Source: Candidatus Woesebacteria bacterium | GTDB taxonomy: Bacteria; Patescibacteriota; Microgenomatia; UBA1400; UBA1396 | Assembly (NCBI GenBank): GCA_021208605.1 | Contig: JAJOJK010000018.1 | Coordinates: 4,780-68,779, forward strand | Reading direction: 5' to 3' | DNA: 64,000 nucleotides | Notes under the pieces: generated by a model | Databases searched by the model: none | The model's input: only the letters and a program-made list of their open reading frames with translations | Told to the model about the DNA's origin: nothing | Shown here: piece after piece, positions 1,013 to 60,873 of the stretch | How positions within the stretch are numbered: the first letter of the stretch is position 1 | Layout of the letters: every line of letters starts with the position of its first letter | Translations under genes and position numbers: made by a program

Positions 1013-2635
1013 TTATGTTTCGACCGAAAGCAGCGCTTCTTCAACGGCTGCCACTAGAAGATCGTCGTGGGCTTGTGCGGAGACATCTACCACCGCCTCA
1101 TCTGGCCGTTGAAGGAGATCATACACAATTTCAATATCCGTTATTCCGAGACGCTGCTCGAACACTTCTTTGACGGCTCGGGCGTACTTGGTCGTTTCGA
1201 GGCGTTCCTTATGAAACGGTAAACTCAAGGCAATATGTACGGCAGAACCTTCCAGACGGCCAGGTTCGGCGTTGCGCAACAACGACTCTACCGCGGTACT
1301 CTTTTCGCGCATAGCCAACAAAATGCCGGGCCATTCTTTATGCAGCGGACCTTCTTTTGCTGGTTTGCTCACTGGTTTGCGGAGTGGCTGAGTTGCCGAG
1401 GCTTCCACGGCAGAACTCGACGCAGTTTTCGGAGTGTTTTGGGTTGGAGACACTTCTTGTTCGGTCATAATGCGCTCCGCTACAGGCACTGCTTGCTCAC
1501 GGCTAATATCTTCTTTTTCGCAAGCCATCGTGGTGGTTTTACTCTTGGGAGTGGATTTTGCTTCGTTGGGATCAGGATCCGTGTTGCTCGATTTTTCGCC
1601 CACACACCACCGGTAACAGGCCACTTCTAGAGCAATACCCTCCACCGGTTCCGAACCGCCCAGTCGCTGCGAAAAGTGCTCCAACAGATCTACAATGTTG
1701 ACGAGGGTCTTTTTCGCTTCCTGACGCTGAATTGCCCGCGATAAACGCTCCTGCAAAGCAGCGAGCAATGCTTGTTCTAAGGCGCGAAACGAAACTCCCT
1801 TTTGCCGCGCATTCGTAAAGTACTCCGATACCGCAGCGACATCTTTGGTGGCCAATGCCCGCAAAAGGTCAGTGACTTCTTCGTCGGAACCCAGCACGGC
1901 CGCCGCAAGTTCGGGACTTACTGCGCCATCGCGAATGATTTGCTCGAAGTACTTCACCGCATCACGGAAGCTCCCGTTGGCAACTTTGGCCAAGCGAGCA
2001 GCGATGTCATCATCCAGAGTGATCTCTTCGGCTTCTGCAATGGTGTGCAGTACACCGGCAATTTCATCGGTCGTGGCTTGACGGAAGCGAATCAGTTGGC
2101 AGCGCGATTGCACGGTAGCTGGCACTTTATGGAGTTCGGTCGTTGCCAGGACAAATACCACATTTTTCGGTGGTTCTTCCAGCATTTTGAGCAACGCGTT
2201 GAAGGCTTCATTGGTAAGCATGTGTACTTCGTCGAGAATAACGACTCGCACAAAACCTTCTGTTGGCACGACTGAAATATGCTCTTGAAGTTGGCGCACG
2301 TCATCGATTCCGCGGTGGCTGGCGGCATCTTGCTCGATAACCACTTGCGAACGCCCCTCGGCAATTTTGGCCAAAACAGGATCTTTGCCATCTGGCTCAA
2401 CAAACTTGCCTTTGCCCTCCTGGATAACAGATTGATTGCGAGGATCATTTAACACTCGGGCTAAAATGCGCGCCGAAGAGGTCTTCCCGGTGCCTTTGGG
2501 GCCAGCAAATAAATACGCGTGCGCAAACTGCCCGGCATCGAGCACATTCTGCAACTGTTCGCGAACAGGAGCAATGTGTAAATCAGAAACATTTTGGGGT
2601 CTATACTGTCGATACCATGCCATGTGAGATACCAT
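1013..2635 (-). CDS. dnaX: DNA polymerase III subunit gamma/tau
   Basis: 540-aa ORF; Walker A FAGPKGTGKTS and clamp-loader AAA+ motifs; operon context. Confidence 0.9.
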   Translation of the reverse strand: MVSHMAWYRQYRPQNVSDLHIAPVREQLQNVLDAGQFAHAYLFAGPKGTGKTSSARILARVLNDPRNQSVIQEGKGKFVEPDGKDPVLAKIAEGRSQVVIEQDAASHRGIDDVRQLQEHISVVPTEGFVRVVILDEVHMLTNEAFNALLKMLEEPPKNVVFVLATTELHKVPATVQSRCQLIRFRQATTDEIAGVLHTIAEAEEITLDDDIAARLAKVANGSFRDAVKYFEQIIRDGAVSPELAAAVLGSDEEVTDLLRALATKDVAAVSEYFTNARQKGVSFRALEQALLAALQERLSRAIQRQEAKKTLVNIVDLLEHFSQRLGGSEPVEGIALEVACYRWCVGEKSSNTDPDPNEAKSTPKSKTTTMACEKEDISREQAVPVAERIMTEQEVSPTQNTPKTASSSAVEASATQPLRKPVSKPAKEGPLHKEWPGILLAMREKSTAVESLLRNAEPGRLEGSAVHIALSLPFHKERLETTKYARAVKEVFEQRLGITDIEIVYDLLQRPDEAVVDVSAQAHDDLLVAAVEEALLSVET

Positions 2636-2715
2636 CGTAACACATGCTGAGAAATTACAAGTCTCTAGCGCAATCCAACATTCTCTTCGAGAGTATCAGA
2701 TACTGTAACACCACG

Positions 2716-2742
2716 AAAAAGGAGCCTTGCGGCTCCTTCTTC
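2716..2742 (-). terminator. rho-independent terminator downstream of rpsI (bidirectional-looking hairpin)
   Basis: Plus strand AAAAAGGAGCC-TTGC-GGCTCCTTCTT: 6-bp GC stem flanked by an A-run and a T-run; lies directly 3' of the rpsI stop (2764-2766). Confidence 0.6.
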
Positions 2743-2763
2743 CATATTTACAAATAGATGTAT

Positions 2764-3261
2764 TTAACGCTTTGGACTTTGGCGTTTGGTACGGGCGCTT
2801 CCACCACGACCTGGTTTGCGAGACTCTTTCATACGAGCGTCGCGGGTCAGGAGGCCAGCGTCCTTGAGGGCTTTTTTGTAACCTGAATCAATTTCTACCA
2901 AAGCACGCGCAATACCGTGAACGGCAGCATCGAGCTGAGCAGAAGCACCAGAACCGAGCACCTTCACACTGACGGCAAACTTGCCGAGGGTGTCGGTAAC
3001 ACGGAAAGGTTCCAAGAAGCGAGCTTCAGGGGAGACAACAGCGTCGAAGTACTCAACCATAGGTTGGTCGTTAACGACGTAGTCACCAGGCTTGGTGTAC
3101 AAACGAACACGAGCATTAGCAGTCTTGCGACGACCAACGGTGGCAATGTACTCACCCTTTGGAAGAGAAACGACCTGTCCAGATTTTTTGGCTGGAACAG
3201 CTTGCTGCTTCTTCTTTACCTTTTGAACTTTGTTGTGACTCTTTTTAAATTGTTTCGCCAT
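2764..3261 (-). CDS. rpsI: 30S ribosomal protein S9 (with short N-terminal Lys-rich extension)
   Basis: 165 aa with the S9 core motif GGGxSGQAxAxxHGIARAL and a C-terminal Arg/Lys tail. Confidence 0.93.
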   Translation of the reverse strand: MAKQFKKSHNKVQKVKKKQQAVPAKKSGQVVSLPKGEYIATVGRRKTANARVRLYTKPGDYVVNDQPMVEYFDAVVSPEARFLEPFRVTDTLGKFAVSVKVLGSGASAQLDAAVHGIARALVEIDSGYKKALKDAGLLTRDARMKESRKPGRGGSARTKRQSPKR

Positions 3262-3270
3262 ACTGTCCTC

Positions 3271-3696
3271 TTATTTCGCTTGCTTCAGTTTGTCTTCGTA
3301 GGCGTGTTCGGCACCAGCGAACACTTTCAAGCGACGCAAACGAGGGGTTTGCTGCTTGTTCTTCGGGAGCATGCCCTTCACAGCGCGTTCGATCACCTGT
3401 TGTGGATCACGGTCCAAAAGCGTAGCAAAGTTTTCTTGCTTCAGTCCACCTGGACGACCACTGTGACGGTAGTACATCTTGTCTTGCTCTTTGTTACCGG
3501 TAACGGCCACTTCACTGGCATTGATCACGATGACGTAATCACCACCATCCACATGCGGCGTGAAGGTTGGTTTGTTCTTTCCAATTAAGAGCGTGGCTGC
3601 TTCCGCAGCGACTTCACCGAGGACGCGTCCTTTGGCATCAACGAGATGCCATTCACGCTGTACATCCTGCGGTCGTTGCATAAATGTTTTTTGCAT
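3271..3696 (-). CDS. rplM: 50S ribosomal protein L13
   Basis: 141 aa, L13 family sequence; rplM-rpsI pair. Confidence 0.93.
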   Translation of the reverse strand: MQKTFMQRPQDVQREWHLVDAKGRVLGEVAAEAATLLIGKNKPTFTPHVDGGDYVIVINASEVAVTGNKEQDKMYYRHSGRPGGLKQENFATLLDRDPQQVIERAVKGMLPKNKQQTPRLRRLKVFAGAEHAYEDKLKQAK

Positions 3697-3708
3697 GACT
3701 ACCCAATC

Positions 3709-4218
3709 TTACTTTTCTTCTGCCGCTTTTTTCTCGGTCTTGGTAGACGAAGCGGACTTTTTGGTTGTTTTCTTTTCAGCCTTTTCGGTCTTTTCGGCCT
3801 TCTCAGCTTTTTTGGCTGGCTTGGCTTCTTCATTCGCTTCAGCTTTTTCAGCTTTGGCTGCAGGTTGGTTTACCAACTCGATGAGAACCATGTCAGCGTC
3901 ATCACCACGGCGACGACCAATGCGAGTCATGGTGGTAAAACCAGATTCGCGATCTTGCATAGCGGGAGCTACGCTGTCGACCAAGTGATTCACAACTTGC
4001 TTAGAACCAAAGAAGCGTTCCAGCAAACGACGAGCCTGGACAGTGCCTGGCTTGGCGCGGCTGATTAGCTTATCAGCCAGACGCTTCACTTGCTTAGCCT
4101 TCTGAGAGGTGGTTTCGATGGCACCGTGCTCAAACAAGTTGACTAACAAGTTTTTGAACATCGCCTTGCGGGCTTTGGTATCACGGTTAAATGACTTACT
4201 TTTTACTCGATGTCGCAT
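3709..4218 (-). CDS. rplQ: 50S ribosomal protein L17 with ~50-aa Lys/Ala/Glu-rich C-terminal tail
   Basis: 169 aa; L17 core (MRHRVKSKSFNRDTKARKAMFKNL...) followed by AKAEKAEANEEAKPAKKAEKAEK... low-complexity tail. Confidence 0.92.
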   Translation of the reverse strand: MRHRVKSKSFNRDTKARKAMFKNLLVNLFEHGAIETTSQKAKQVKRLADKLISRAKPGTVQARRLLERFFGSKQVVNHLVDSVAPAMQDRESGFTTMTRIGRRRGDDADMVLIELVNQPAAKAEKAEANEEAKPAKKAEKAEKTEKAEKKTTKKSASSTKTEKKAAEEK

Positions 4219-4226
4219 AGCTATCC

Positions 4227-5171
4227 TTATTCTTCCTGAGCGGCCTCACTGGCACTGCCTTCTTTGAAGGTGGCGCCGACTTTTTCCAAGGCTTCAGCAA
4301 CGATGTCGACTGACTTAGCACCGAGATTCTTCACGACAGAAACTTGGGCTTCGGTTGCTTGAGAAAGATCACCCACGGTGCTGTAGCCACCTTTACGGAG
4401 GGCATTCGCAATACGGGTTGGGAGATCCAACTCTTCAATGGTTAAACGAGAGACTTCGTCAGTTTTCTTGGCAACTGGTTCGCTGCTGCGTTCCAGAACG
4501 TCGGTTGGATTGATCACTTGTTGGAAGTGAGCAATCAAGATCTCAGCTGAGTGGTCGAGAGCTTCTTTGACGTCAACGGTACCGTCGGTCCAGACTTGCA
4601 TGATCAAACGATCAAAGTCGGTGCGGCGACCAACACGGGTCTCTTCAACGGAGTACGCAACTTTCACGATTGGTGAGAAGACAGCGTCAACGAGTAAGGT
4701 ACCAGTGATGTCGTCGGTTTGGCGAGATTCAGCAGTGCTGTAACCAGTGCCTTGTTCGACAGTGAACGTGATCTCCAACTTGGCGCTGGCATCTAAAGAA
4801 GCCAGGTAGTGGTCAGGGTTCACAATTTCGACACCAGCTGGACAAGAAATGTCACCAGCAGTCACTTCGCCGCCTTTAGCAGACAAAGTTAAGGTGGAGG
4901 CATCACTCAAATCAGACTGAATGCGAATACCTTTGATGTTCAAGAGTAAGTCAACAATATCTTCCTTCAAACCTGGCAAGGTAGAAAATTGGTGTTCAAC
5001 ACCAGAGATCTTCACTGCCGTGATCGCATGACCAGGGATAGAAGATAAAAGAACACGACGTAAAGCATTTCCAACAGTGTGGCCGTAACCACCTTCTAGA
5101 GGTTCACAGACGAGCTCTGTGTAGTTGCCTTCCTGTTTCGCAAGTGTGACGTTAAATCGGGGGGTAATCAT
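4227..5171 (-). CDS. rpoA: DNA-directed RNA polymerase subunit alpha
   Basis: Track ORF 4227..5291 is over-extended into rpsD. True start is most likely the internal ATG (MITPRFNVTLAKQEG...) at ~5169-5171, preceded by an AGGAG Shine-Dalgarno. Product is 315 aa with alpha NTD/CTD. Confidence 0.9.
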   Translation of the reverse strand: MITPRFNVTLAKQEGNYTELVCEPLEGGYGHTVGNALRRVLLSSIPGHAITAVKISGVEHQFSTLPGLKEDIVDLLLNIKGIRIQSDLSDASTLTLSAKGGEVTAGDISCPAGVEIVNPDHYLASLDASAKLEITFTVEQGTGYSTAESRQTDDITGTLLVDAVFSPIVKVAYSVEETRVGRRTDFDRLIMQVWTDGTVDVKEALDHSAEILIAHFQQVINPTDVLERSSEPVAKKTDEVSRLTIEELDLPTRIANALRKGGYSTVGDLSQATEAQVSVVKNLGAKSVDIVAEALEKVGATFKEGSASEAAQEE

Positions 5172-9494: not shown

Positions 9495-10268
9495 TTATTC
9501 AGATTTCTCGTCAGCAGCTTTTTCTTCTTTTTTAGTAGACTTTTTAGCAGCTGGCTTCTTTTCAGTTTTCTCTTCAGCGGGAGCAGCTTTTTCTTCTGCT
9601 TTGGCAGCTTTTTTCGCCTTTGGAGCTTCAGCTTTGGCAGACTCAGCTTTTTGAGCGGTCTTCTTGGCTGGTTTCTTCTCGGCTTTTTCAGCTTTCTTCG
9701 ATTTCTCGTCGGCGTCGGCCTTAGCCTTCGCTTCACGTTGCATCTCTTTTTCTTTTTCTTTGAGTTCGCGCTCTTCTTCGGCGACAGACTTCAAAGTCAT
9801 TCCGCGGAGCTCTACTATATCACGAATTTGACGTAATGCCTCAAACGTAGCGTAGACGTTGGAAGCTTTGTTGTTGGTTCCGAGAATCTTCGCTGAAATA
9901 TCACGAATACCAGCAGCTTCCACAACAGCACGCACTGGACCACCGGCGATAACACCAGATCCACGTGGGGCTGGGTTCAAGATGATACGAGCAGCACCGT
10001 GCTTTACCTCAATAGGGAAAGGAATAGTGGTTCCATCCATAGGAACGGTAAACATCTTTTTGCGAGCGCGACGAACACCTTTTTTGATAGAAGCCAGAAC
10101 ATCTGGAGCTTTACCGAGGGCAACACCAACTTGGCCTTTACGGTCACCAACCACCATTAAAACGGAGAAACCAATTTTGTTTCCACCTTTGGTCTTCTTG
10201 GAGACACGGCTTACTTGCACGACCTTCTCGTCGAATTCCCGCTGATTGCGTTGATCATTATCTCTCAT
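9495..10268 (-). CDS. rpsE: 30S ribosomal protein S5 with ~100-aa Lys/Ala/Glu-rich C-terminal tail
   Basis: 257 aa; the S5 dsRBD plus C-terminal domain runs to ~residue 155, then EEERELKEKEKEMQREAKAKADADEKSKKAEKAEKKPAKK... No rpmD (L30) gene lies between rpsE and rplO. Confidence 0.92.
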   Translation of the reverse strand: MRDNDQRNQREFDEKVVQVSRVSKKTKGGNKIGFSVLMVVGDRKGQVGVALGKAPDVLASIKKGVRRARKKMFTVPMDGTTIPFPIEVKHGAARIILNPAPRGSGVIAGGPVRAVVEAAGIRDISAKILGTNNKASNVYATFEALRQIRDIVELRGMTLKSVAEEERELKEKEKEMQREAKAKADADEKSKKAEKAEKKPAKKTAQKAESAKAEAPKAKKAAKAEEKAAPAEEKTEKKPAAKKSTKKEEKAADEKSE

Positions 10269-10342
10269 ATGTTTATCTAAAAGGATTTTCCTTCAAAGTG
10301 AAACCCGTAGGGAAGGTGAATCCTTTTTCCTTATAGTTCTTT
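10269..10342 (-). promoter_or_regulatory. conserved structured 5'-leader RNA element, copy A (upstream of rpsE)
   Basis: Fills the whole rplR-rpsE intergenic space. Plus strand ATCTAAAAGGATT...GTGAAACCCGTAGGGAAGG...AATCCTTTTTCCTTA gives a 9-bp outer helix, an inner CCTTC/GAAGG helix and a CCC-UAC-GGG mini-hairpin. Same architecture as copies B, C and D. Confidence 0.6.
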
Positions 10343-10696
10343 CTACAGTTCAATTCCTTGTTCACGGATGGTGTCAGCGACAGCTTTAACGCGGCCGTGG
10401 TAACGGTAGTATCCGCGGTCGAAAGTGACTTGCTTAACACCAGCTTGTTTGAGTTGCTCAGCAACTTGCTCAGCGGCAGCTTGAGCGCGTTCCGTCTTCG
10501 TGCCTTTGGCACCTTTGTCATAGGCGGAAGCAACGGTCAGGCTCTTGTCATCATCAATAGCTTGGATGAAGACGTGTTGATTAGAACGATAAATGGACAA
10601 ACGTGGTCGTTCGGCCGTTCCATGCAGTTTGCTGCGCACGCGGCGAGCGCGGCGAAGGCGTTGCTTTTGCAGTGCTTTTTGTTGATTACGTGTCAT
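10343..10696 (-). CDS. rplR: 50S ribosomal protein L18
   Basis: 117 aa L18 family. Confidence 0.92.
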   Translation of the reverse strand: MTRNQQKALQKQRLRRARRVRSKLHGTAERPRLSIYRSNQHVFIQAIDDDKSLTVASAYDKGAKGTKTERAQAAAEQVAEQLKQAGVKQVTFDRGYYRYHGRVKAVADTIREQGIEL

Positions 10697-18293: not shown

Positions 18294-18623
18294 TTAGTTC
18301 TTGATCTGAATTCCCACACCAGCGGGAAGCTCCAGATGCATTAAAGAATCAATTGTTTTGTTGGTTGGGTTAACGATGTCTAAAACACGAATGTGTGTAC
18401 GCATCTCAAAGTGCTCACGAGAGTCTTTGTCAGTGTGAGGAGATCGCAACACAGTGAAACGTTTTTTCTGTGTCGGCATTGGAATCGGACCGATTAAATC
18501 AGCGCCGCTCGCCAATACGCTCTGCATGATCTTACGTACGGCTTCATCGAGAATACGATGATCGAACGCTTTCAAACGAACGCGAATTTTATTTGCTGAG
18601 TCTTGTTTCGTGTTTTTAGCCAT
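18294..18623 (-). CDS. rpsJ: 30S ribosomal protein S10
   Basis: 109 aa S10 family. Confidence 0.93.
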
Positions 18624-18720
18624 ATATACCTAAAAGGTCTGATCTTCAGCGTGAAACCCACAGGGAAGGTCAGACCTTTTTCCTTACAGGGCCTCAAGAG
18701 AGGATGTTCCTTTTCCTTTG
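18624..18720 (-). promoter_or_regulatory. conserved structured 5'-leader RNA element, copy C (upstream of rpsJ)
   Basis: Plus strand ATATACCTAAAAGGTCTGA-TCTTCAGCGTGAAACCCACAGGGAAGG-TCAGACCTTTTTCCTTA gives a perfect 10-bp outer helix (AAAGGTCTGA/TCAGACCTTT); a second CCTTTTCCTTT tract follows at ~18708-18720. Confidence 0.6.
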
Positions 18721-18787
18721 TCATTTTGACAGACTGTGATTATAACGCATACCTGGCTTTCTGCCAAGGGGAAATGGGAGGAGATTG

Positions 18788-18864
18788 GGAAGGTTACCTT
18801 CCTTTTCAGTTTTCTCTGGAAAGGTTACCTTAAGGGAACCTTTCCAGATGTAGTTAAAGAGTAA
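18788..18864. repeat. IS200-like element left-end repeat with palindrome (hairpin ~18816-18847)
   Basis: GAAGGTTACCTTCC...TTCTCTGGAAAGGTTACCTTAAGGGAACCTTTCCAGATGTAGTTAAAGAG; a direct-repeat copy of 19367-19452. Confidence 0.65.
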
Positions 18865-18956
18865 GGCTCCCCTTCCCTATTTCAACTAAATTTTATACCC
18901 AAAGTGTTTCCAATTAAGTAAGCCCATTTCAATGTGGTTTCTCAAAATATACTTGT

Positions 18957-19322
18957 CTAATCGCATTTCCTCTTCTTTTTTTTCGATATTAGCGTAGCTT
19001 TATATGGTGTTTCAAAAACGCGACCTGAGCCACCATGTCGCCCTCGATAATACTTCCCAAAAGCTGTCATTACACTTCTCATAAGATGTTCCATGTCTCT
19101 CGAGTTTTCTTGCCATACTTTTAAGTGAAAATGATTTGGAAGAATATTAAAGGGTGATATCATAATTACCCCAGACATTTTTTTCATTTTCAGTCTTGCA
19201 ATTCTTCGAAAAACCCAAAAATCAGTGTCATCTTGAAATACGATAGATCCTGCGGCACCTCTGTTATACACGTGATAGACAGCGTTTTCATAGTATTCCT
19301 TATCAACATTTTTTTGCGGCAT
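18957..19322 (-). CDS. tnpA: IS200/IS605-family HUH tyrosine (Y1) transposase TnpA / RAYT-like
   Basis: 121 aa with YHVYNRG, the HuH motif ILPNHFHLKV and a C-terminal FGKYYRGRHGGSGRVFETPYKATLI (catalytic Tyr region). COG1943/PF01797-type signature. Confidence 0.75.
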   Translation of the reverse strand: MPQKNVDKEYYENAVYHVYNRGAAGSIVFQDDTDFWVFRRIARLKMKKMSGVIMISPFNILPNHFHLKVWQENSRDMEHLMRSVMTAFGKYYRGRHGGSGRVFETPYKATLISKKKKRKCD

Positions 19323-19366
19323 ACAGGAAATATCTCAAATAAATTGAACAGAAAAAGAACAATTTT

Positions 19367-19452
19367 AAAGGTTACCTTCTTCTTTATTTTTCTCTGGAAA
19401 GGTTACCTTAAGGTAACCCTTCCAGAGGTAGTTAAAAAGGAAGGTAACCCTA
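19367..19452. repeat. IS200-like element right-end repeat with palindrome (hairpin ~19394-19425)
   Basis: AAAGGTTACCTTCT...TTCTCTGGAAAGGTTACCTTAAGGTAACCCTTCCAGAGGTAGTTAAAAAGGAAGGTAACCC. Confidence 0.65.
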
Positions 19453-19460
19453 CAACCAAC

Positions 19461-19484
19461 AAAAAAGCCCCTCCCGGGGCTTTC
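19461..19484 (-). terminator. rho-independent terminator of tuf
   Basis: Minus strand reads AAAGCCCCGGGAGGGGCTTTTTTGTTGG: an 8-bp GC stem plus a U-tract, 35 nt downstream of the tuf stop. Confidence 0.7.
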
Positions 19485-19517
19485 TTGCTCTAAACAGATC
19501 TTTTCTGCTTAAAAATC

Positions 19518-20696
19518 TTACTCGACGATTTCGGTAATAGCACCGGCACCGACAGTCAGACCACCTTCGCGAATAGCGAAGCGGAGACCTTGCTCAAGAG
19601 CAACATTGCTGATGAGTTCGACAGTCATGTTAGCGTTGTCGCCAGGCATAACCATTTCGGTTCCTTCGGCCAACTTGATTTCACCGGTAACGTCAGTTGT
19701 ACGGATGTAGAACTGAGGACGGTATCCAGAGAAGAATGGCTTGTGACGTCCACCTTCTTCTTTGGTCAAGATAAGCACTTCAGCTTTGAACTTGTTGTGG
19801 GTCTTGAGAGAGCCAGCCTTACAGAGGACTTGACCACGTTGGACGTCGTCTTTTTCGACACCACGCAGCAAGATACCGACGTTGTCACCAGCTTCACCTT
19901 GGGTAAGTTCTTTACGGAACATTTCCACACCAGTGACGGTAGACTTCATTGGGTTATCAAAACCGAGGATTTCGATTTCGTCACCAACTTTGACCACACC
20001 GCGTTCGATACGACCGGTTACAACCGTACCACGACCCTTGATGGAGAAGACGTCTTCTACAGCCATCAAGAAAGGCTTGTCGGTTTCACGGACAGGATCT
20101 TCGATGTAGGTGTCGACAGCATCCATGAGTTCCATGACCTTGGCTTGAGCGTCGGCGTCACCTTCAAGAGCCTTGAGGGCAGACACACGAACAACTGGAG
20201 CGTTGTCACCGTCAAAACCGTATTTGGTCAAGAGTTCACGAACTTCCATTTCGACCAAGTCGAGGAGTTCTTCGTCATCAACCATGTCACACTTGTTCAG
20301 AGCGACGACCAAACGTGGAACGTTCACTTGCTTAGCCAGCAAGATGTGCTCACGTGTTTGAGGCATAGGACCATCGGTAGCAGCCACAACCAAGATAGCA
20401 CCGTCCATTTGAGCGGCACCGGTAATCATGTTCTTGATGTAGTCAGCGTGACCTGGAGCATCAATGTGAGCATAGTGACGTTTTTCAGTCTCGTACTCGA
20501 TGTGAGAAATGTTAATAGTAACACCGCGAGCCGCTTCTTCTGGAGCGTTGTCAATGTCGGTGTAACCCATCGCTTGGGCAAAACCCTTTTGAGCGAGAGT
20601 TGTAGTAATAGCCGCAGTTAACGTGGTCTTACCGTGGTCAACGTGACCAATCGTACCAATGTTAACGTGTGGCTTGGTGCGTTGGAACTGAGCCAT
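19518..20696 (-). CDS. tuf: elongation factor Tu
   Basis: 392 aa; [21 protein letters not shown] motifs. Confidence 0.95.
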
Positions 20697-20774: not shown

Positions 20775-22910
20775 TTAGGACTGCTGCTCCACAATTTGTT
20801 GAGCAATGTTGTCAGGAACGACCTCATAGTGGCTCGGCTCCATGTAGTAGGAAGCACGACCCTGAGTCATACTACGAAGAATTGTAGCATAGCTCGGCAA
20901 TTCAGCCAGCGGGACTTGACCCTTAATGACAACAGCGGTGCCTTGTTCGGTGGAACCCTGCACGAGACCGCGACGAGAAGACAAGTCGCCAATCACGTCA
21001 CCCATAAACTCTTTTGGAGTGGTGACTTCGACGCGCATAATTGGTTCGAGCAGTTGCAAACCAGCTTTACGTGCACCAGACTGAAGACCCATAGAAGCGG
21101 CCAATTTAAAGGCAATTTCTGAAGAGTCAACATCGTGGTAACTTCCATCGTAGAGGGTAACCTTCATGTCGACCATTGGGTAGCCAGCCATAACACCGTT
21201 CGCCATAGCTTCTTCAACACCTTTTTGCACTGGAGTAATAAATTCCTTTGGAATCGCACCACCAGTGATAGCGTTGACGAACTCGAAACCAGTACCGCGG
21301 TCCATTGGTTCCAAACGAAGGTACACGTGACCGTATTGACCACGACCACCGGACTGCTTGATGTATTTGGATTCTTGCTCGGTAGGAGCTTTAATGGTTT
21401 CGCGGTAGGCAACTTGTGGAGCACCGACGTTGGCGTCCACTTTGAATTCACGCTTCATACGATCAACGATGATTTCCAAATGGAGTTCACCCATACCAGC
21501 AATAATGGTTTGGTTGGTGTCGTGGTTGACCTTAACCTGGAAGGTTGGATCTTCTTCAGACAACTTCGCCAAAGCCATACCCATTTTTTCTTGGTCAGAC
21601 TTGGTAGCTGGTTCGATAGCCAAAGAGATAACTGGTTCAGCAAAGGTAATACCTTCCAAAACAATTGGAGCGCTTTCTTCACAGAGGGAGTCACCAGTTC
21701 GGGTAGCTTTCAAACCGACCAAAGCAACGATTTCACCAGCATAGGCTGCTTGGATTTCTTCACGTTGGTTCGCGTGCATTAAGAGCACACGACCGACACG
21801 TTCCTTCTCTTTTTGGGTTGCGTTGTAGATGTATGAACCAGCTTCGAGCTTACCAGAGTAAATACGAGCATAGGTGATACGACCCACGTGTGGATCGGTC
21901 TGCACCTTGAAAGCCAACATAGCCAGAGGTTCGGTTGGAACCAATTGACGAGTGACTTCTTCACCCGTGTCTGGGTTGGTACCGGTAATGTGGTCCACAT
22001 CTTGTGGAGATGGCAGGTAGTCAACAATTGCGTCGAGCAATGGTTGGATACCCATGTTCTTCAAGGCAGAACCACAGAACATTGGCACGAGTTCATAGTT
22101 AATGACCGCTTTGCGGAGAGCTTTCTTAAGTTCAGCCACGCTGATTTCTTCACCCTCGAGGTATTTATTCATGAGTTCTTCGTCGGTTTCGACAATCATT
22201 TCCACGAGCTCGGCGCGTTTTTCTTCGGCCTTAGCTCGGAACTCTTCTGGAACGTCAATCACTTCATATGGAGTAGAAGCTTCTTGGTCAGCCCAGTGAA
22301 GCGCTCTCATTTCGAGCAACTGCACTAAACCGCGGAACTCGTTCTCGGCACCCATTGGCATAACCATAGGAGCTGGCGTAACACCAAATTTCTCTTTGAC
22401 GTCACCAACCACGAAATCAAAGTTGGCACCAACTTTGTCCATCTTGTTGACAAAACAGAGACGAGGCACGTGGTACTTGTCAGCTTGACGCCAAACGGTT
22501 TCAGATTGAGACTGCACACCTTTGTCGGCGTCGAGCACTGTCACACCACCATCGAGCACACGCAGAGAACGCTCCACCTCAGCGGTGAAGTCGACGTGAC
22601 CTGGTGTGTCAATAATGTTAATGCGATGATCCGTTTGCGGCATCAAAGTTTGTTCGAGAACTGGAGTCCAGAAAGTTGTGGTGGCCGCGGAAACAATGGT
22701 AATACCACGTTCACGCTCTTGCTCCATCCAGTCCATGGTGGCTTCACCTTCGTGAACCTCACCAATTTTGTAGGATTTACCGGTGAAGTATAAAATACGT
22801 TCGGTCGTGGTGGTTTTACCGGCATCAATGTGCGCGATAATACCAATGTTACGAATCCGGTCGAGCGGAAGGTTGCGGTCGTCAGTCTTGACTGTTTGTT
22901 GCGTGGCCAT
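20775..22910 (-). CDS. fusA: elongation factor G
   Basis: 711 aa; [13 protein letters not shown]-loop and EF-G domains II-V. Confidence 0.95.
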
Positions 22911-23039
22911 AAATATCTAAAAGGATTTTCCTGCAGATGTGTAACCCGAAGGGCAGGTGAATCCTTTTCCCTTATAGATTACTTCTTGTGTATTTCCTTT
23001 TCCTCTATATTTTCTTTTTTCTCTATTTCTATTTCTAGC
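22911..23039 (-). promoter_or_regulatory. conserved structured 5'-leader RNA element, copy D (upstream of fusA; core ~22911-22975)
   Basis: ATAAATATCTAAAAGGATT-TTCCTGCAGATGTGTAACCCGAAGGGCAGG-TGAATCCTTTTCCCTTA. The outer helix is identical to copy A; the inner helix has the compensatory pair CCTGC/GCAGG; the mini-hairpin is CCC-UUC(G)-GGG. Confidence 0.6.
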
Positions 23040-50390: not shown

Positions 50391-53300
50391 ATGGCCATTG
50401 ACTCAACTATACGTATTGAAAGCGTCCAGGAACTCAAGGATCGCTTACGCAGTGCTGGCGTACTTACCAACTGGAAACGCTTTAGCGATTTCTTGGAAGA
50501 ATTTGTTGGCGAAATTGAGAAGGCCGGAGAAAATCCTGAATTCGTCGCCACGATAAGCAGTGAAAAATTCCCCATTGACCTCGCAACACTGAAGTTTCTC
50601 TACGCGTACTTAGGTTCTGGGGACCACTTCGTCCGCGACTTTGCTGAAGAATCCGCTCTCGCCAAAATTCTGGAAATCATCACTGACACCAAACAAAAAT
50701 ATGGCAGTGCACTTGAAGGACTTAGCTCTAACGATACAGTGTCCCGACAGCGCCAAACAGCACTTACCTTCTTCCAACAACTTACCTACGATCTCGAACC
50801 AAGTAATCTCCAAGGAGAGACTGAATCCGAAGGCACTTTTCTTGCCGAAGCGCTACCGGCGGTTTTTGCAGACGATCAAATTCTTCTCAAGGCTGATAAT
50901 CCCAGCCAGGTCAACGCGCTCAAACAGCAAATTGAAGAACAATTCAACGAACTCCGTCAGCTTATCAAGAAGTATGACAGACCAGAAACAATCGAGCTTG
51001 AAACACAAGTAACAACGGCTCTCTCTGCGGCAAGGGCGCAAGCGCAGGCGAATGATGACGAAACGGCTCAACGCCAACTTACTCAAGCCAGTGAAATCCA
51101 GGAAACAGCGCAAAGCCAGCTCCGTGAATCACTCGAGGAGCGCCGAAAAGAACAACTCGACAAGATACGAAATTCGCAAGCTCTCCTTTTCTCTTTGGTT
51201 GAGAAATACTCAGAAGACACTTCATTTGATGAACTGTTCCTTTCTACACTTATTCAATATATTCGGGTCGATCGAATCGATTTTCAAGTCGTGCTCAGCT
51301 TTACCGCTTTCCTTGGATACTTGCGCGACCTCTTCGAGACACTTTTAGCCAACACCCGCGATTTTGTCGAGAAAAAAACGGAAGCATACAAAAAAGAACA
51401 AGCTTCCGCCAAAAAAACTCTTAATCGAGAACTAGCGGCGCTCTTCGACGTTGAACTTCCGCGAGAAGACGATGCCGGCGGTGGCGCGGATGAGGAGCAA
51501 GAAGAGGACGAGTCCACCCTCCTGACAGTCGAAGAATTCCGCACGCGACTCACCGAAGCAGAAGCTTCACTCAACTCGCTGCCGTTAGCAAACGTTGACG
51601 ATCTCAAAGCGGCCCTAGAACTCGAGAGCATTCAGACTGATAAACAAATACACGTTGTCATCGATTCTCTCTTCCAACAAGCCGACACGTTCTCCGACGC
51701 ACAAAGAGCAGCCATCTTACAAAAGCTCACCGCGTATATTGCACGGCTAAAAGCTGATCAAGAAGTTGATGAAGATAAACCAACGGACCGTCCCGAGGCT
51801 CAACCAGACTCCGTTCCCACTGTCACACCAGCTGCAGCCGAAACTGGCACCCAAGAAGAGCAAATCTCCAAACTGCGCCAAGGATCAGAACTCGCCCGCT
51901 TAAATGCATTGTTAGTTGCGCAAGCTGAGGGACAACTGTTTGTTCGCCTCAAGGAACTCGGCTATTCAGAAGAAAAAGCCGAAGAACTTATCGCCGCGTA
52001 TCATGGCGACCTCACTAACCTGATTTGGGCTGAACTCTTAGGCGCCGGCGGATACGCCATGCTCAAGGGTCAACAGACACAGTCACTTGGCGCGGTGGAA
52101 CTGACCCAGATCTGGCCAACGCCACCCAAATTGTTGGTAATGAAATTTTGGTTGCCAATGGCGGAACGTTACCCACCAATTATGGTGGCAATTATGCCTC
52201 GCCAGAACAAATAGCATCGCTCACCGAGAAGACACAATTGGCTGTCGCGCAGGCTGGTTTTGTTGATCCTGACGGGTCCTTGACTTCCCTCACTTCGGCA
52301 CTGGCATTTTTCCAGTCACCAGAGGGATTGCAGCAAATTTTGCAGCTTTCACAAAATGCTGATGTCTTGAATGCTATTCAAAGACAAAGCGGTATTTCCA
52401 GCGATCTTCTCGAGTTGCTGGGTTCGCTTGAGTCCCCAGAAGACATTGATCGGCTGCTACGCTTTGATCCGGAGGCACTGAAAAGCTTATCTCGTGCGGA
52501 GCGCAATGGCGTCAACCAAAAACTGCACCGCTTCATGGATTTGCATACACAAATTCAACAAGTGGGCTTTCTCCCACCTGCTGAACTTGAAGAATACAAT
52601 GCACTCGCCCGCGAAATCGAACCCATTTTCAATATTCTCAATGAGTATGGTGATGATCTGTATCTCTTACTGTACGCGCAACAAGACTTGGCTGACTTAA
52701 GCCAATTCATTCAGCGCGCCGCTCAAACGGAGGCCGCCGTTCAACAACGACTTCCTCAATTTGTGCAACGCGATGTGCAGTACACATCTCGTTTTGCCCA
52801 ATACGCCGTGGTGACAACGACGGTTACTACAACCGTTACCACGACCACCACGGAAATAAGCGAACAAGATCCTTCCTACCTACTCGGCGAAGCCAAAAAT
52901 GATCTGGCGCTCAAGCGCATGATCGCTCTCAGCATGGCCGCGACTCCAGAAGAACAAATGGAGCTGGAACTCCTGCTGCGCCATCCCGAAATGGCTGGTA
53001 TCCAACAAGCGACAGCAGCCGAAGGTGTACCGGCGCTCAATGCGCAAAACCTCTCTCAACAACTCGCTGCCCTGCAACAGAAAAACAGCGGCCTCAACCA
53101 AAAAATCGAAAAGGCCAAAGCCCTGCAAGCGGGCATGAAGGCCCTTATTGCCTCCAAAGGAAATCCTTACTTACTCGCTGCCAACCTGCTTAAAAGCAAA
53201 GAAGGCCGCAAACTCATCATGAAGGCACTTGGGGGCGCTGCCGCTGGCGCTACGGCCACGGTAGCAATTATTTTGGCGCCTCTGATTCAGTTCTATAACG

Positions 53301-54271
53301 CAGTTATTGTGCCAGTCATGAACTTTGTGTCTGGTGTGGTGAGTGGTATTACGGGATTCTTTGGCGGGTTGTTTGGAGGCGGCGGCGCAGCCGCCGCGGG
53401 CAGCGGTATTTCTGGTTCTCTGGGAGCCGGAACGGCGCAAGCCATGACTAACGCGGCCTCAACCGCCAAACTCGCCTCCACGCAAGCAACGGCTCTGGCT
53501 CGGGGAGAAGCGGTAAAGGCCATGACGACCCTGGAAGCACAGGCTAATGCCATTATGTCTGGCACGGTAGTTGCCGAGACAGCAACTGCGGTCATTGCCG
53601 TTGGAGTCATCGGGCCGTTTCTGCTAATCGGAGTTTTGACCTTGATCGTGATCACGGTTATCGGCGCGTCGGTAAACGATATTCCCATGTCTGGTGTGCA
53701 ACGGAGTATTAGTAGCGGTGGACTGGGCGTGGCGGGATGTTGGCCAACGAACGGAAGTATTACTGCTCTTGAAACATACCCAGACGGGCGTCCACACGTA
53801 CGAAGAGATAGTCCAGGAGCTTCTGCCATAGATATAGGTGGAACAACTGGGAATCCTATCTACACCCCGTTTTCTGGTGTAGCTCTCTCTAAATGGGATG
53901 ACGAATACGGAAACATGGTAAGAATCGAAACTGACTATGGATTCACCGTGATTCTTGCTCACATGCTCGAAGCCTGTATTCCATCACAAACAGGTGGTTG
54001 TTTAGCCCCTGATCAGAGTGGACCAGTTACTGCAGGACAACAAGTTGGTTTGCTCGGAAGTACCGGAAATTCGTCAGGACCGCACTTACACTATGAAGTG
54101 TTTAATGTTCCCAGCTCACTCACTACCCGTGATTATGCTATCGCTGATTTAGTGCCGCCAGTTCCTCCTCTTGCAGTCAACGCCGTTGTCTCCACCAGTC
54201 AATGTTCAGTAGGTGGTAACCCGTACAACCCCTCTGCTACTGAGTCTGGTCGAACCAATGATGCACTGTAA
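50391..54271 (+). CDS. giant T4SS-associated protein with an N-terminal coiled-coil region, central TM/Gly-rich segment and C-terminal M23 (LytM) peptidoglycan endopeptidase domain; interrupted by an apparent -1 frameshift near 52095-52100
   Basis: Track ORFs 50391..52214 and 52148..54271 (TTG start). Plausible protein text switches frame between ...QQTQSLGAV and GTDPDLANATQIVGNEILVANGGTL... The M23 motifs are HVRRD (HxxxD) and GSTGNSSGPHLHYEV (HxH). There is a (TTTVTT)n repeat. The architecture is analogous to PrgK/CwlT-type conjugation hydrolases. Confidence 0.7.
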
Positions 54272-54327
54272 AAAAAACATGCAGTACTGCTGACTATGGC
54301 TTACAATGAAACAGGAAGAATAAAAAA

Positions 54328-55371
54328 ATGCCATCGCGAACCAATCAAAAAACACCATCTAGTGCTCTAGGAAATCTCCAAGAAATCTTAGGCATTGGTC
54401 GCCGAGAACAAATTGTTCTTCTTGGCGTTTTAGCGCTCATTATAACCACTGGTATACTCATCTTTTTCCGTCCACGGACTGCATCACAGCCATCTGGAGT
54501 TACTTTCTCAACCTATGAACAGCATGAAGGTAGCATATCTGTTACTTTTACTGGCTCAACCGACGTAACAAAAAATCGATTAGCACTGCAATATATCACC
54601 GACGCCATCGATCAAGAAACACTCCTGCGTACTTTTGCCGGACGACTTGATATGCAAGCACTTCCCAGTTCTCTCACTGGCAACACCTATATCTCTGCCG
54701 ACGGTGTCACGACACTCACCATGGCAAACGGTGATCAAGGCATTATCTATATTAAAAACGGGGCTCTTTCAGAACCACTTACTCCGGTCTCTCTTGAGTT
54801 TGCACAAGAAAGTGCAGAAGAATTTTTAAGCTCTCTAGGATACACGGTAGAAGAACTCAATCTTATCGAAAATGAAACCCAATTCCTTGGCACACAAGTA
54901 GAAGGAAGTGAAGGGTTTCCGCAAGTTCCTGCAGCAGAAGCCAGAATCATCCAACTCTTTTACGAAAAACAACTCAATACTGTTCCAATTGCCTACTCTG
55001 CCAGTGCAGTAGAGAAAATCGCGATCGAAATAACTGCTGATGGTGTCTTCCGCGCAAATCTCCCTAACGTCTTCATCTCCACCGAACCAGGCCGTGAATA
55101 TACCGTCATCTCGGTAGAAAAAGCGCTGGAAAATATAGAAAGTGGTCAATTCTCTATCATTGGTACACCTGGCCGTGTGGAGAAAAGTGATCGCTTTGTC
55201 CGCCTCGATTTAGTGGAACAATCTCTCCAGTATCGCTACGATACTTCTCAAGGGATTCTTTTCCCCATGTTCCGATTCGAAGGAACCGCCATGACAGAAA
55301 GTGGTGAACTCTTTGAGATGGTGGTCGTCACCGAGGCCATAGAAGTGCGCAGTGAAGACATCGAGCAATAA
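54328..55371 (+). CDS. membrane-anchored hypothetical protein of the T4SS locus (347 aa, single N-terminal TM)
   Basis: N-terminal TM (IVLLGVLALIITTGILIFF), then a soluble alpha/beta region; position is analogous to the VirB8/ConB-like bitopic proteins. Confidence 0.4.
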   Translation: MPSRTNQKTPSSALGNLQEILGIGRREQIVLLGVLALIITTGILIFFRPRTASQPSGVTFSTYEQHEGSISVTFTGSTDVTKNRLALQYITDAIDQETLLRTFAGRLDMQALPSSLTGNTYISADGVTTLTMANGDQGIIYIKNGALSEPLTPVSLEFAQESAEEFLSSLGYTVEELNLIENETQFLGTQVEGSEGFPQVPAAEARIIQLFYEKQLNTVPIAYSASAVEKIAIEITADGVFRANLPNVFISTEPGREYTVISVEKALENIESGQFSIIGTPGRVEKSDRFVRLDLVEQSLQYRYDTSQGILFPMFRFEGTAMTESGELFEMVVVTEAIEVRSEDIEQ

Positions 55372-55421
55372 TGATAGAGTAGATATACGCTACAAAACAC
55401 GGCGCCACCGCACCTATCAAC

Positions 55422-56696
55422 ATGATCGAACACCCAGTTCCACAGAACATCACTGAGTATCAGTTCCATCTGATCGGCAACATGACGATCAAGCAGTTTA
55501 TTATTCTGCTGGTTGGTGTGGTGTTGGCGTTCATGTTTTACAGCACCAACTTACCCGGAATTATTAAGTGGCCGTTTATGCTGGTTATCGTGGGAGGCTC
55601 TGGTGCACTGGCTTTTGTACCGTATGAAGAGCGCACACTCGATCAGTGGCTGGTGAATTTTATTCGCGCTATCTACCGTCCCACCAAATACTACTGGCAA
55701 CGCACAGCGCCAACTCCTGGGTACTTCACGCATGAAGTCACCCAAAGCCAAGCGCTGAGCACTGGCCAAGAACGCTCGACGCTCCCACAGCGCCAGAAAC
55801 AATTCTCGGCGTATATGTCCTCATTGCAAACCCAGTCTCAAGGCCCGGTATCGCAGGATCCTTTGGATCTTTTTCAAGGAGCTACTGGCGATCTCAGCTC
55901 ACTGTTTGACTCGGTAGAAGCGGCCGAAAACGTTGTCCCTGGAGAAACCATGGCCATGGAAAAACCGAACTTGCAGGTTCGTGCCCGCCCACTAGGCAGC
56001 GGACAGAACATGGTCTTTGATACCAAAATTGACACTACTCCCGGAGACGACCTTGCGACTCCAACATCCACTCCGGCCGCCGCCACCGCCCAATGGGGGA
56101 ACTCGTATGGCGGAAACGACACTTATAGCACCTTCACCATAGACTCCGTACAAGAATCAAAACACTCTCAACAGGAAGATGCCACGCCATCAGCACCTCG
56201 CGGGCAAGCCGCCACAACAGATGTCCAGACTATCTCGGTGCCCAGATCGGCACCCACCAAGACAGAAGTCACCCAGCCTGAAACGAGCGCTGCGCAGTCT
56301 GCAACCAAGACCGACAACGAACCCACTGGAAACGCCTACGTAACCGAGAGCTCTGTGCAGCGCGCGCCGCAGCACGCTGCGGCGCCCATCCCCGTCCCCT
56401 TCAACAAAGATCTGCCGTTCCCGTCTTTGCCGGATAAGCCGAACTTGCTTTTGGGAATGGTCCACGATCAGCAGAAAAATATTATTCCGGGCGCTATCGT
56501 CGAGATTTTGGATGAAAATGGCAACACGGTCCGCGCCATGAAAACCAACAATCTTGGTCAATTCTATATTTCTACTCCCCTGCAAACAGGAAAATACACG
56601 ATCGAAACCGAAGCCAATGGGCATGAATTTCCGGTCTTTGCTCTCGAAGTAGACGGTTCCGTGCTCGATCCGGTGGACATTCTTGCTCAAACCTAA
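55422..56696 (+). CDS. PrgI/VirB3-like two-TM protein fused to a C-terminal beta-sandwich (carboxypeptidase-regulatory-like) domain
   Basis: N-terminus TIKQFIILLVGVVLAFMFY...IKWPFMLVIVGGSGALAFVPYEERTLDQWL, a long disordered middle, and C-terminal IIPGAIVEILDENGNTVRAMKTNNLGQFYISTPLQTGKYTIE. Confidence 0.4.
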   Translation: MIEHPVPQNITEYQFHLIGNMTIKQFIILLVGVVLAFMFYSTNLPGIIKWPFMLVIVGGSGALAFVPYEERTLDQWLVNFIRAIYRPTKYYWQRTAPTPGYFTHEVTQSQALSTGQERSTLPQRQKQFSAYMSSLQTQSQGPVSQDPLDLFQGATGDLSSLFDSVEAAENVVPGETMAMEKPNLQVRARPLGSGQNMVFDTKIDTTPGDDLATPTSTPAAATAQWGNSYGGNDTYSTFTIDSVQESKHSQQEDATPSAPRGQAATTDVQTISVPRSAPTKTEVTQPETSAAQSATKTDNEPTGNAYVTESSVQRAPQHAAAPIPVPFNKDLPFPSLPDKPNLLLGMVHDQQKNIIPGAIVEILDENGNTVRAMKTNNLGQFYISTPLQTGKYTIETEANGHEFPVFALEVDGSVLDPVDILAQT

Positions 56697-56748
56697 AAAA
56701 GTGTTCAACTCGTGACGAATCCCGACAAAACTCGTATACTGGAAACGC

Positions 56749-57681
56749 ATGCCTAACTCCCAAGGACAGCTCTCATCAACTTCTCAAAAATATCTTGAGA
56801 TTCTGGATATCACCAACGACCTACTGGTCATGAAAGATGGCTCGACGGCTGTCGTCCTTGAAGTTAGCGCCATCAACTTCGGCCTTTTGTCCGAGCCAGA
56901 ACAAGACGCCATTATTTATGCGTATGCGGCTCTCATAAACTCGCTCTCGTTCCCAATTCAGATTGCCATTATTTCTCGTCCCAAAGATGTCAGTAACTAC
57001 TTGGAATATGTTGACGAACAATTCCAAACTGCCACGTCGGACCTTCGTCGTCAACAAATCGCCAGCTACCGCCAGTTTGTTTCCAATTTAATTACAGAGC
57101 AAAACGTCTTGGATAAAAACTTTTATGTCATTTTGCCACTTTCGGCTATTGAACTTGGTATTGCTGACTCAGTGAATCCCATGAAACAAGTCATGCCGAG
57201 CGATAAACCAGCTGAGTTTGACAAAAATTCGGTCATCCAACGCTCGGTCAACACACTGGGCCCGCGTCGTGATCATATGATTAGTCAGTTCAGCCGCTTT
57301 GGACTTCGCGCCGAGCAACTCCGCACCAAAGATCTGATCCAACTGTTTTACATTATGTACAACTCGCAATCAGCCGAAGGTATCAAAGTGGTGGACACCA
57401 AAGAATACACCAGCGCCGTCATTCAGCCGCGCGGAAATTTCCAGGTTCCTACCGCAGCACCAGAGGTCGCAACCGCACCACCAACGCAGACCACCCCGGC
57501 AGCCCCAGAGCCAACACCTCCTGCGGCAAGTGCTCCACAAGCTGTCCCCGTAGAAATTCCTTCTGAAGACACCACATCAGAAGTGTCTTCCCTCGAAAAC
57601 GCCATGTCCTCCATTCCCCGCGAAGGTGTCGGCCTGAACGTGGACGCTACCAACACCGACGACAACCAACCACCACGATAA
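56749..57681 (+). CDS. T4SS-associated protein resembling the VirB4/TrbE N-terminal (CagE_TrbE_VirB-like) domain, with Pro/Thr-rich tail
   Basis: LEILDITNDLLVMKDGSTAVVLEVSAINFGLLSEPEQDAIIYAYAALINSLSFPIQIAIISRP pattern; C-terminal PTAAPEVATAPPTQTTPAAPEPTPPAASAP. Confidence 0.35.
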   Translation: MPNSQGQLSSTSQKYLEILDITNDLLVMKDGSTAVVLEVSAINFGLLSEPEQDAIIYAYAALINSLSFPIQIAIISRPKDVSNYLEYVDEQFQTATSDLRRQQIASYRQFVSNLITEQNVLDKNFYVILPLSAIELGIADSVNPMKQVMPSDKPAEFDKNSVIQRSVNTLGPRRDHMISQFSRFGLRAEQLRTKDLIQLFYIMYNSQSAEGIKVVDTKEYTSAVIQPRGNFQVPTAAPEVATAPPTQTTPAAPEPTPPAASAPQAVPVEIPSEDTTSEVSSLENAMSSIPREGVGLNVDATNTDDNQPPR

Positions 57682-57687
57682 GGAACT

Positions 57688-60162: not shown

Positions 60163-60170
60163 ATCTTTTT

Positions 60171-60776: not shown

Positions 60777-60791
60777 CCCTCCGGTTTTTTT
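60767..60791 (+). terminator. terminator-like hairpin GAGGGTCTAACCCTCCGG plus T7 after the idi-like gene
   Basis: Stem GAGGG/CCCTC followed by TTTTTTT. A near-identical copy GAGGGTCCGACCCTCCGA lies at ~60836-60853, just upstream of the -10 TATACT of the next gene. Confidence 0.5.
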
Positions 60792-60873
60792 CTCCTACTT
60801 TTGTACTTGGTCCAGACAACAACGTCCCTATAAGAGAGGGTCCGACCCTCCGAAACAGTGCTATACTCACCCT

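Follow-up and report, generated by a model that had tools for sequence, protein, structure and literature searches.

We analyzed a 64,000-nucleotide stretch of DNA, referred to here as the window, from a metagenome-assembled genome (MAG) of a Candidatus Woesebacteria bacterium (GenBank assembly GCA_021208605.1, contig JAJOJK010000018.1, positions 4,780 to 68,779 of the forward strand). The subject is a cassette of ~670 bp between the tuf terminator and the rpsJ promoter that consists of a gene for a Y1 HUH protein and two large hairpins. The cassette is probably a persistent REPtron-like locus: a gene for a nuclease that resembles the repetitive extragenic palindrome (REP)-associated tyrosine transposases (RAYTs), accompanied by two cognate hairpins and long resident at the tuf-rpsJ junction in one clade of Woesebacteria. 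An earlier note on this DNA had described the cassette as a rare mobile element, a small insertion sequence (IS) of the IS200/IS605 type, and had offered REP-like sequences mobilized by a RAYT as its fallback. The fallback is close to the reading favored here.

Features of the cassette, followed by its edges and neighboring genes (window coordinates):
19364 to 19453, minus strand: upstream two-tier palindrome (covariance model [CM] score 96.1 bits, E = 1.3e-19; DNA fold -23.2 kcal/mol, z = -5.2)
19428 to 19433, minus strand: AACTAC motif, 5' foot of the upstream inner stem
18886 to 19322, minus strand: Y1 HUH (RAYT-like) gene, 144 amino acids (aa) in four other assemblies, catalytic Tyr124
18957 to 19322, minus strand: 121-aa open reading frame (ORF) as called, a truncated Y1 HUH gene
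18989 to 18995, minus strand: two extra A's (at about 18995 and 18990); the window has AAAGCTaCGCTaATATCG, and contigs L113, L114, and L115 have AAAGCTCGCTATATCG
18786 to 18875, minus strand: downstream two-tier palindrome (CM 78.5 bits, E = 1.4e-15; DNA fold -21.8 kcal/mol, z = -4.6)
19460 to 19487, minus strand: tuf intrinsic terminator, the inverted repeat AAAGCCCC-GGGA-GGGGCTTTTTTG
18739 to 18767, minus strand: S10-operon promoter, TTGGCA-17-TATAAT (sigma-70, 11 of 12 matches)
20775 to 22910, minus strand: fusA
19518 to 20696, minus strand: tuf
18294 to 18623, minus strand: rpsJ

The palindromes, the protein, and the truncated reading frame

The ~80-bp palindromic repeats in direct orientation that the earlier note had reported on either side of the ORF are real. 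They span positions 18790 to 18873 and 19368 to 19451, are 84 nt long and 86% identical, and each forms a palindrome of ~80 to 90 nt. A 32-nt core (CTGGAAAGGTTACCTTAAGGTAACCCTTCCAG) is found in the window at these two places only, with 0 occurrences expected by chance. In the upstream copy, an outer stem (19452 to 19440 paired with 19379 to 19367) is separated by a 10+10-nt internal loop from an inner stem-loop (19429 to 19390). The downstream copy has the same orientation, with its inner stem-loop at 18851 to 18812 and its AACTAC motif at 18855 to 18850. The fold that the two share as single-stranded DNA (ssDNA) comprises an outer stem of 10 to 13 bp, the 10+10-nt internal loop, an inner stem of 16 to 18 bp, and a 4-nt loop, and it is stronger than that of shuffled sequence in both repeats (0 of 200 shuffles). 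The direct orientation of the copies is indicated by the conserved AACTAC 5' of the inner stem and by CM scores that are higher on the minus strand than on the other strand, both upstream (96.1 versus 82.2 bits) and downstream (78.5 versus 52.5 bits). The 90-nt elements are full palindromes, and hence the ends of the cassette are also inverted repeats of each other.

Six hairpins, two each from the window and from two other species (L001, GCA_964447905.1; L002, GCA_964385325.1), were used for alignment, for the CM, and for the analysis of covariation. They align without internal gaps, and all fold alike in two tiers. In the two-tier structure, 89% of the cells are paired and 15 of the 31 pairs have compensatory changes, values that none of 500 shuffles reached; when the pairing partners were slid by one column, pairing was ~56%. 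Judged by this covariation, the hairpins are structures under selection; they are also tied to the gene. Identity between the two hairpins of one genome is 83% in the window and 69% in L001, versus 50 to 72% between genomes, and in two of the three genomes each copy is closer in sequence to its partner than to the hairpin at the corresponding position in another genome.

In four of the six hairpins, AACTAC directly adjoins the 5' foot of the inner stem on the coding strand; on the opposite strand, GTAG consequently follows the hairpin on its 3' side. The upstream hairpin of L002 has the motif on the opposite arm, and its downstream hairpin has AACTTC. The 5' foot position of AACTAC is taken by the guide tetranucleotide in IS608 and ISDra2 and by GT[AG]G in canonical REPs (PMC8266576, PMC6006769). 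An arrangement in which each half of the palindrome would be its own REP-like hairpin, so that the whole would be a REPIN (a pair of two REPs), fits the GGTTACC-type core by eye but not the GGAAACC-type core of L001, and was rejected. When positions 18400 to 19700 were scanned against Rfam, only sub-threshold matches to generic hairpins were obtained, and neither hairpin is followed by the T-run typical of terminators.

The protein belongs to the Y1 HUH superfamily, as had been proposed. The HUH motif of the window ORF is PNHFHL, with H64 and H66 invariant in alignments of 8 and 46 sequences. Conservation of the Tyr in (K/R)YI(L/H)xN is at least 90% among 46 homologues, and this residue lies on the C-terminal helix, 114-130, in an AlphaFold model of P0002, the orthologue in L002 (predicted local distance difference test [pLDDT] 90.2, predicted template modeling score [pTM] 0.84). 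The best structural match of this model is 4er8_A, the Escherichia coli TnpA-REP protein with a REP hairpin (template modeling [TM] score 0.68, root mean square deviation [rmsd] 2.8 Å, 130 columns). The ISDra2 and IS608 transposases come next (TM 0.56 to 0.62, rmsd 5.6 to 12.9 Å), and the top 19 matches among Protein Data Bank (PDB) structures are all TnpA-REP, ISDra2, or IS608 transposases. A profile of the family compared with PDB sequences also matched ISDra2 TnpA and TnpA-REP.

Comparisons with sequence models point in the same direction. The NCBIfam model REP_Tyr_transpos (NF047646) was the best model throughout, with 15.9 to 19.8 bits for the window protein, 35.6 bits for P0003 (the orthologue in L001), and 36.7 bits for P0004. 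The affinity with IS200 that the earlier note had assumed was not borne out: the NCBIfam IS200 model NF033573 (cut-off 55 bits) matched P0004 alone, at 13.9 bits; the window protein, P0002, and P0003 had no match at E ≤ 1. The outcome with PF01797 (gathering threshold 23 bits), a check that the earlier note had suggested, was divided: P0003 (28.7 bits) and P0004 (41.3 bits) are above the cut-off, P0002 scored 18.8 bits, and the window ORF had no match at E ≤ 1. Membership of the window protein in PF01797 thus rests on transitive homology, its identity being 75.5% to P0002, 66 to 66.7% to P0003, and 35% to P0004. Overall, the protein is more similar to RAYTs than to IS200 TnpA.

A profile search returned more than 7,298 homologues, mostly of 205 to 235 aa. 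Those with a named organism are from phyla of the candidate phyla radiation (CPR), namely Saccharibacteria, Gottesmanbacteria, and Microgenomates, and some have the JGI label RayT. The 143- to 146-aa form found in the window is a small subfamily with a handful of members (P0001 to P0004, L033, and L034), and metagenome contigs scanned by protein alignment contained distant relatives only (≤38% identity) and no further orthologues. At most of the surveyed metagenome loci, one strong hairpin precedes the start by ~40 to 80 nt and a second is located at the stop; additional hairpin copies in the 4-kb flanks of these loci are rare. Homologous genes at unrelated loci are bracketed by hairpins of their own. 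At four loci (L059, L074, L076, and L100; Y1 genes at ~3600 to 4700), copies of the flanking hairpin are also present inside the Y1 ORF, ~220 to 300 nt apart, which recalls the in-frame REP insertions of TnpA-Y1 subclass 2.4 (PMC6006769).

The 121-aa ORF, which the earlier note had taken for an intact gene, is a frameshifted truncation of the 144-aa gene without the catalytic Tyr. An identical sequence is already recorded for a Candidatus Woesebacteria MAG, where it is annotated as a hypothetical protein. The Y1 motifs quoted for the N-terminal and central parts of the ORF are present, but the sequence quoted as the C-terminal hallmark differs from the catalytic Tyr motif, DKYILRNH, which lies out of frame downstream. 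The closest homologues are 143 to 144 aa long and run on through the motif (K/R)YILRNH, which is missing from the ORF; the 28 missing codons (EEMRLDKYILRNHIEMGLLNWKHFGYKI, followed by the stop) are intact in the -1 frame directly downstream. The intact 144-aa protein with its catalytic Tyr is encoded in GCA_021208155.1 and in Logan contigs of SRR12390700, SRR12390694, and SRR12390697. At the frameshift site, the alleles are AAAGCTCGCTATATCG versus AAAGCTACGCTAATATCG.

The two extra A's are most likely errors of a long-read consensus. Over 13.6 kb, the window and short-read contig L114 have 0 mismatches and exactly two gaps, both of which are the extra A's. Comparison with NCBI MAGs of the same population (L113 and L120 to L122), which covered positions 7547 to 28266 and 51701 to 64000 of the window, revealed 3 to 22 gaps and 0 to 4 mismatches per 12 to 21 kb. 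The differences were almost all 1-nt indels, a pattern typical of errors in a long-read consensus. The assemblies of this population, which also include GCA_021208925.1 and GCA_021209405.1, disagree in how several genes are split. A real, minor, inactivated allele is a minority possibility, retained because Logan contig L116 starts exactly at the frameshift site. Programmed -1 frameshifting was considered because the heptamer A AAA AAG lies in phase immediately 3' of the frame change (A8 run at 18976 to 18983), but it was rejected: the intact allele has this A8 run too and stays in a single frame across it. The change of frame is caused by the two extra A's 5' of the A8 run, and the orthologues have no A-run there.

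Age and distribution of the cassette

The cassette is situated where the earlier note had placed it, between tuf and rpsJ. Its upstream edge is the tuf terminator, which is kept in relatives with and without the cassette, and its downstream edge is the S10-operon promoter, which is kept in all relatives examined. The genes 3' of rpsJ are, in order, rplC, rplD, rplW, and rplB, and the whole neighborhood is on the minus strand.

In both L001 and L002, the orthologue (P0003 and P0002, respectively) lies between tuf and rpsJ on the strand of the operon, with two 90-nt hairpins in each case. For the pair of window and L001, the synonymous divergence (dS) is 1.48 for the Y1 gene, 1.18 for rplC, and 1.35 for rplD. 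Across the Y1 pairs dS is 1.5 to 2.0, and the ratio of nonsynonymous to synonymous divergence (dN/dS) is 0.09 to 0.17. A dS like that of the neighbors, together with the low dN/dS, indicates that the Y1 gene has been diverging for about as long as the adjacent genes and under purifying selection. By this measure of sequence divergence the cassette is old, and a recent or rare mobile insertion was not supported: the same cassette is present in the same spacer and on the same strand in the other two species, as diverged as the adjacent rplC and rplD.

A host tree from rpsJ, rplC, rplD, and rplW has the topology ((window, L001), (L117, L002)), L118, L119, with bootstrap values of 297 to 300 of 300. 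The cassette is absent from L117, the sister of L002, and from the two outgroups L118 and L119; L117 and L118 keep the terminator and the promoter, and searches of the unoccupied spacers with blastn-short and tblastn detected no relic of it. Homology between occupied and unoccupied spacers is confined to the terminator and the promoter/leader region, and the 140 to 150 nt between them in L117 and L118 are unrelated. Therefore, no empty site and no target motif can be mapped; the earlier note had proposed to look for an empty site of ~200 bp and to map the ends from the cleavage-site tetranucleotide.

Other contents were observed in the tuf-rpsJ spacer of other genomes. L118 has a different long hairpin at 926 to 1054, with a 25-bp perfect stem around ~75 nt (z = -7.7) and no Y1 gene. 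The spacer seems to accept various palindromic inserts. In the more distant relative L119, an unrelated 250-aa ORF without a significant Pfam match occupies positions 479 to 1231. In the distant L055 (tuf 65% identical), the spacer at 1360 to 3990 contains an ldh/mdh-like gene and an unknown ORF as well as, on the opposite strand, a RayT-like gene of 196 to 209 aa whose 37-nt flanking hairpins are inverted and 97% complementary.

The additional copies that the earlier note had proposed to search for elsewhere in the genome were not detected within the ~72 kb covered. A CM of the six hairpins, run over the 64-kb window with filters off, found only the two flanking copies, the next match having E > 1; in the ~8 kb beyond the window it found no hairpin, and in L001, L002, and L113 it found the flanking copies only. 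With tblastn there was one copy of the Y1 gene, and the highest count of any flanking 16-mer in the window was two. The palindrome core AAGGTTNNCTTAAGNNAACCNTT had 29 scattered matches in a genome contig collection that does not include the home MAG, which is about the number expected by chance, and none was in Woesebacteria. The short-read contigs L114 and L115 pass unbroken through the cassette, which suggests that there are no long identical copies elsewhere in the genome. Within the ~72 kb there is no sign that the gene or the hairpins are currently spreading.

Relationship to known Y1 systems and competing explanations

The E. coli TnpA-REP/REPtron system (PDB 4er8; PMC3333891, PMC3479197, PMC8266576) has in common with the cassette a small, single Y1 HUH protein with the Tyr on a C-terminal helix, palindromic hairpins around the gene with a short conserved motif at the 5' foot, and the behavior of a resident gene, which is found at the same locus in related species and is under purifying selection; it is also the best structural match. 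The two differ in protein length (144 aa here versus 165 aa) and in the architecture of the repeats, which here are 90-nt two-tier palindromes in direct orientation and there are short bulged REPs in inverted pairs. RAYTs are recognized by over-represented flanking 16-mers and many dispersed REP or REPIN copies (PMC5581495). Another RAYT trait is found here, in that the gene is single copy in the window, stably located in three species, and diverged like its neighbors in dS, subject to the absence from L117 and a possible incongruence of trees.

RAYT-like systems with atypical flanks offer a further parallel. TnpA-Y1 subclass 2.6 and class 3 (Quentin et al. 2018, PMC6006769) and the Marinomonas REPtrons Ma and Mb (Corneloup et al. 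2021, PMC8266576) either have no GT[AG]G consensus or have REPs concentrated beside the gene rather than genome-wide (PMC6006769, PMC8266576). The likeness is one of description, and the flanks of those systems were characterized as having "weaker secondary structures," whereas the hairpins here are very strong. Neither PMC6006769 nor PMC8266576 mentions CPR/Patescibacteria. The 205- to 235-aa RayT-like (COG1943) family of the CPR consists of direct homologues (27 to 39% identity) with a hairpin before the start and another at the stop, but the proteins of the cassette have 143 to 146 aa without the C-terminal extension, and their palindromes are 84 to 90 nt and two-tiered instead of simple hairpins of 23 to 60 nt.

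By analogy with IS608, ISDra2, and TnpA-REP, the protein would bind the inner stem-loop when the spacer becomes single stranded during replication or heavy transcription. The foot motif would then select a nearby cleavage site, and the ssDNA would be cleaved and rejoined through a 5'-phosphotyrosine intermediate. We infer that the nuclease mechanism may be like that of TnpA-REP and the IS200/IS605 enzymes.

Several observations weigh against interpretation of the cassette as a long-resident REPtron-like locus. The dispersed REP/REPIN population that defines classical RAYT systems is missing from the 72 kb covered. The foot motif is AACTAC here and GT[AG]G in TnpA-REP systems (PMC6006769, PMC8266576). 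Neither the truncated nor the reconstructed window protein nor the product of the intact allele matched PF01797 at the E-value limit used, and the scores of the window protein, P0003, and P0004 are far below the equivalog cut-off of NF047646 (80 bits). The activity of the protein is a prediction. The distribution of the cassette is patchy, as L117 is without it even though its sister L002 is occupied. The host tree is at variance with the Y1 protein, by which the window is nearer to L002 (75.5% identity) than to L001 (66.7%), and with the hairpin core, whose type the window shares with L002 (GGTTACC-type) and not with L001 (GGAAACC-type). This incongruence is weak, with three taxa and a distant outgroup, and could reflect either rate variation combined with one loss or exchange via the near-identical tuf and rpsJ flanks. 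Because the GT[AG]G foot is not present, RAYT-type dispersal is unproven either way, and the tests for IS mobility failed as well, we regard the locus as a variant of the RAYT/REPtron systems rather than as a member of them.

One possibility is that the cassette is an autonomous mini IS of the IS200 type, with the Y1 protein as transposase and the hairpins as ends, which entered by transposition and may still move, or may pass from one related genome to another. Such an element would have the same plan: ~0.7 kb, one small Y1 gene, subterminal hairpins on the same strand, and a conserved, guide-like motif 5' of the hairpin. IS200/IS605 elements (IS608 and ISDra2 TnpA; PDB 2a6o and 2xm3) share the catalytic superfamily and fold, and the family profile and the structural model match their transposases in addition to TnpA-REP. 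Mobility could also account for presence that is polymorphic between the sisters L002 and L117 and for an element phylogeny (window with L002) at odds with that of the hosts (window with L001). However, three species have the cassette at one site and in one orientation, with copies as diverged as the flanking ribosomal protein genes. There are no multiple copies in the 72 kb, the short-read assemblies are unbroken, and the unoccupied spacers provide no clean empty site. The IS200 sequence model matches the proteins barely, if at all, and the fold is nearer to TnpA-REP, with a far higher rmsd to the IS enzymes. The hairpins are much larger than the short, imperfect end hairpins of IS200/IS605, and the two ends are near-identical full palindromes. 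An IS of this type is unlikely.

A RAYT-like nuclease without any dispersed REPs, kept with its two co-evolving hairpins either for a host role of the nuclease-hairpin pair (such as ssDNA processing or insulation) at a junction that is very highly transcribed and replicated, or by recombination between lineages on the ultra-conserved tuf and rpsJ flanks, is an improbable alternative. If true, it would represent a strategy for the persistence of a Y1 gene that needs neither transposition nor REPIN proliferation.

It is also possible, though quite improbable, that the cassette is non-replicative and has been maintained by homologous exchange, carried between related lineages by recombination in the tuf and rpsJ flanks instead of by transposition or strictly vertical inheritance. 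Protein identity between hosts is 99% for tuf and 96 to 98% for rpsJ and just 66 to 75% for Y1, the element and host trees disagree, a sister species has no cassette, and L055, L118, and L119 have different cargo in the same spacer. The disagreement of the trees involves only three occupied taxa and one distant outgroup, however, and rate variation with a single loss explains the data equally well. Furthermore, dS is saturated in all element pairs (1.5 to 2.0), and thus there has been no recent transfer.

That the palindromes are mainly regulatory or structural elements of the host (insulators, RNA-stability hairpins, or protein-binding sites), with the Y1 gene an incidental or decaying passenger, is very improbable: their position exactly between a terminator and a strong promoter, their strongly conserved structure, and the different long hairpin at the same place in L118 would fit, but no hairpin of this kind was seen without the Y1 gene (L117 and L118 have neither, yet keep terminator and promoter), purifying selection on the gene is at odds with decay, homologues at unrelated loci have their own bracketing hairpins, and the hairpins have no terminator-type T-run and no Rfam family at threshold.

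Other features of the window and significance of the locus

A different hairpin element of ~60 nt is present in three copies on the minus strand (18620 to 18700, 22905 to 22985, and 10265 to 10345), directly before the start codons of rpsJ, fusA, and rpsE, respectively. Its consensus is TAAGGAAAAAGG..CCTTCCCT..GGGTTTCAC..TGAAGG..CCTTTTAGRTAT..ATG, mean column identity is 81%, and the stem has compensatory changes. The scan of 18400 to 19700, which included the rpsJ copy only, assigned it to no Rfam family at threshold. The element may be a shared translational or autoregulatory leader. According to the gene calls of L120, a type-IV-secretion-like cluster (PrgI, TraC-like, and VirB4/TraG-like AAA_10 proteins) lies at ~54300 to 60200, and just past the end of the window there are a gene for a type IV secretion system pilin and genes of the mevalonate pathway.

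The cassette is a cautionary case in two respects. What appeared to be a truncated transposase is most likely the product of an indel error in a long-read MAG, and any frameshifted gene in the window may be an assembly error. The junction between tuf and rpsJ is among the most conserved bacterial intergenic junctions, and what looks like an insertion in a conserved operon should be compared with relatives before it is called recent.

RAYT/REPtron systems have been characterized mainly in Proteobacteria. The locus described here would be a compact RAYT-like version in a CPR bacterium with a small genome; its covarying hairpins are unusually large, and its foot motif differs. A protein of 144 aa and an inner hairpin of ~40 nt with AACTAC would provide a small protein/substrate pair for studying how Y1 enzymes choose their substrates, and the locus also raises the question of how a Y1 gene that does not replicate can persist.

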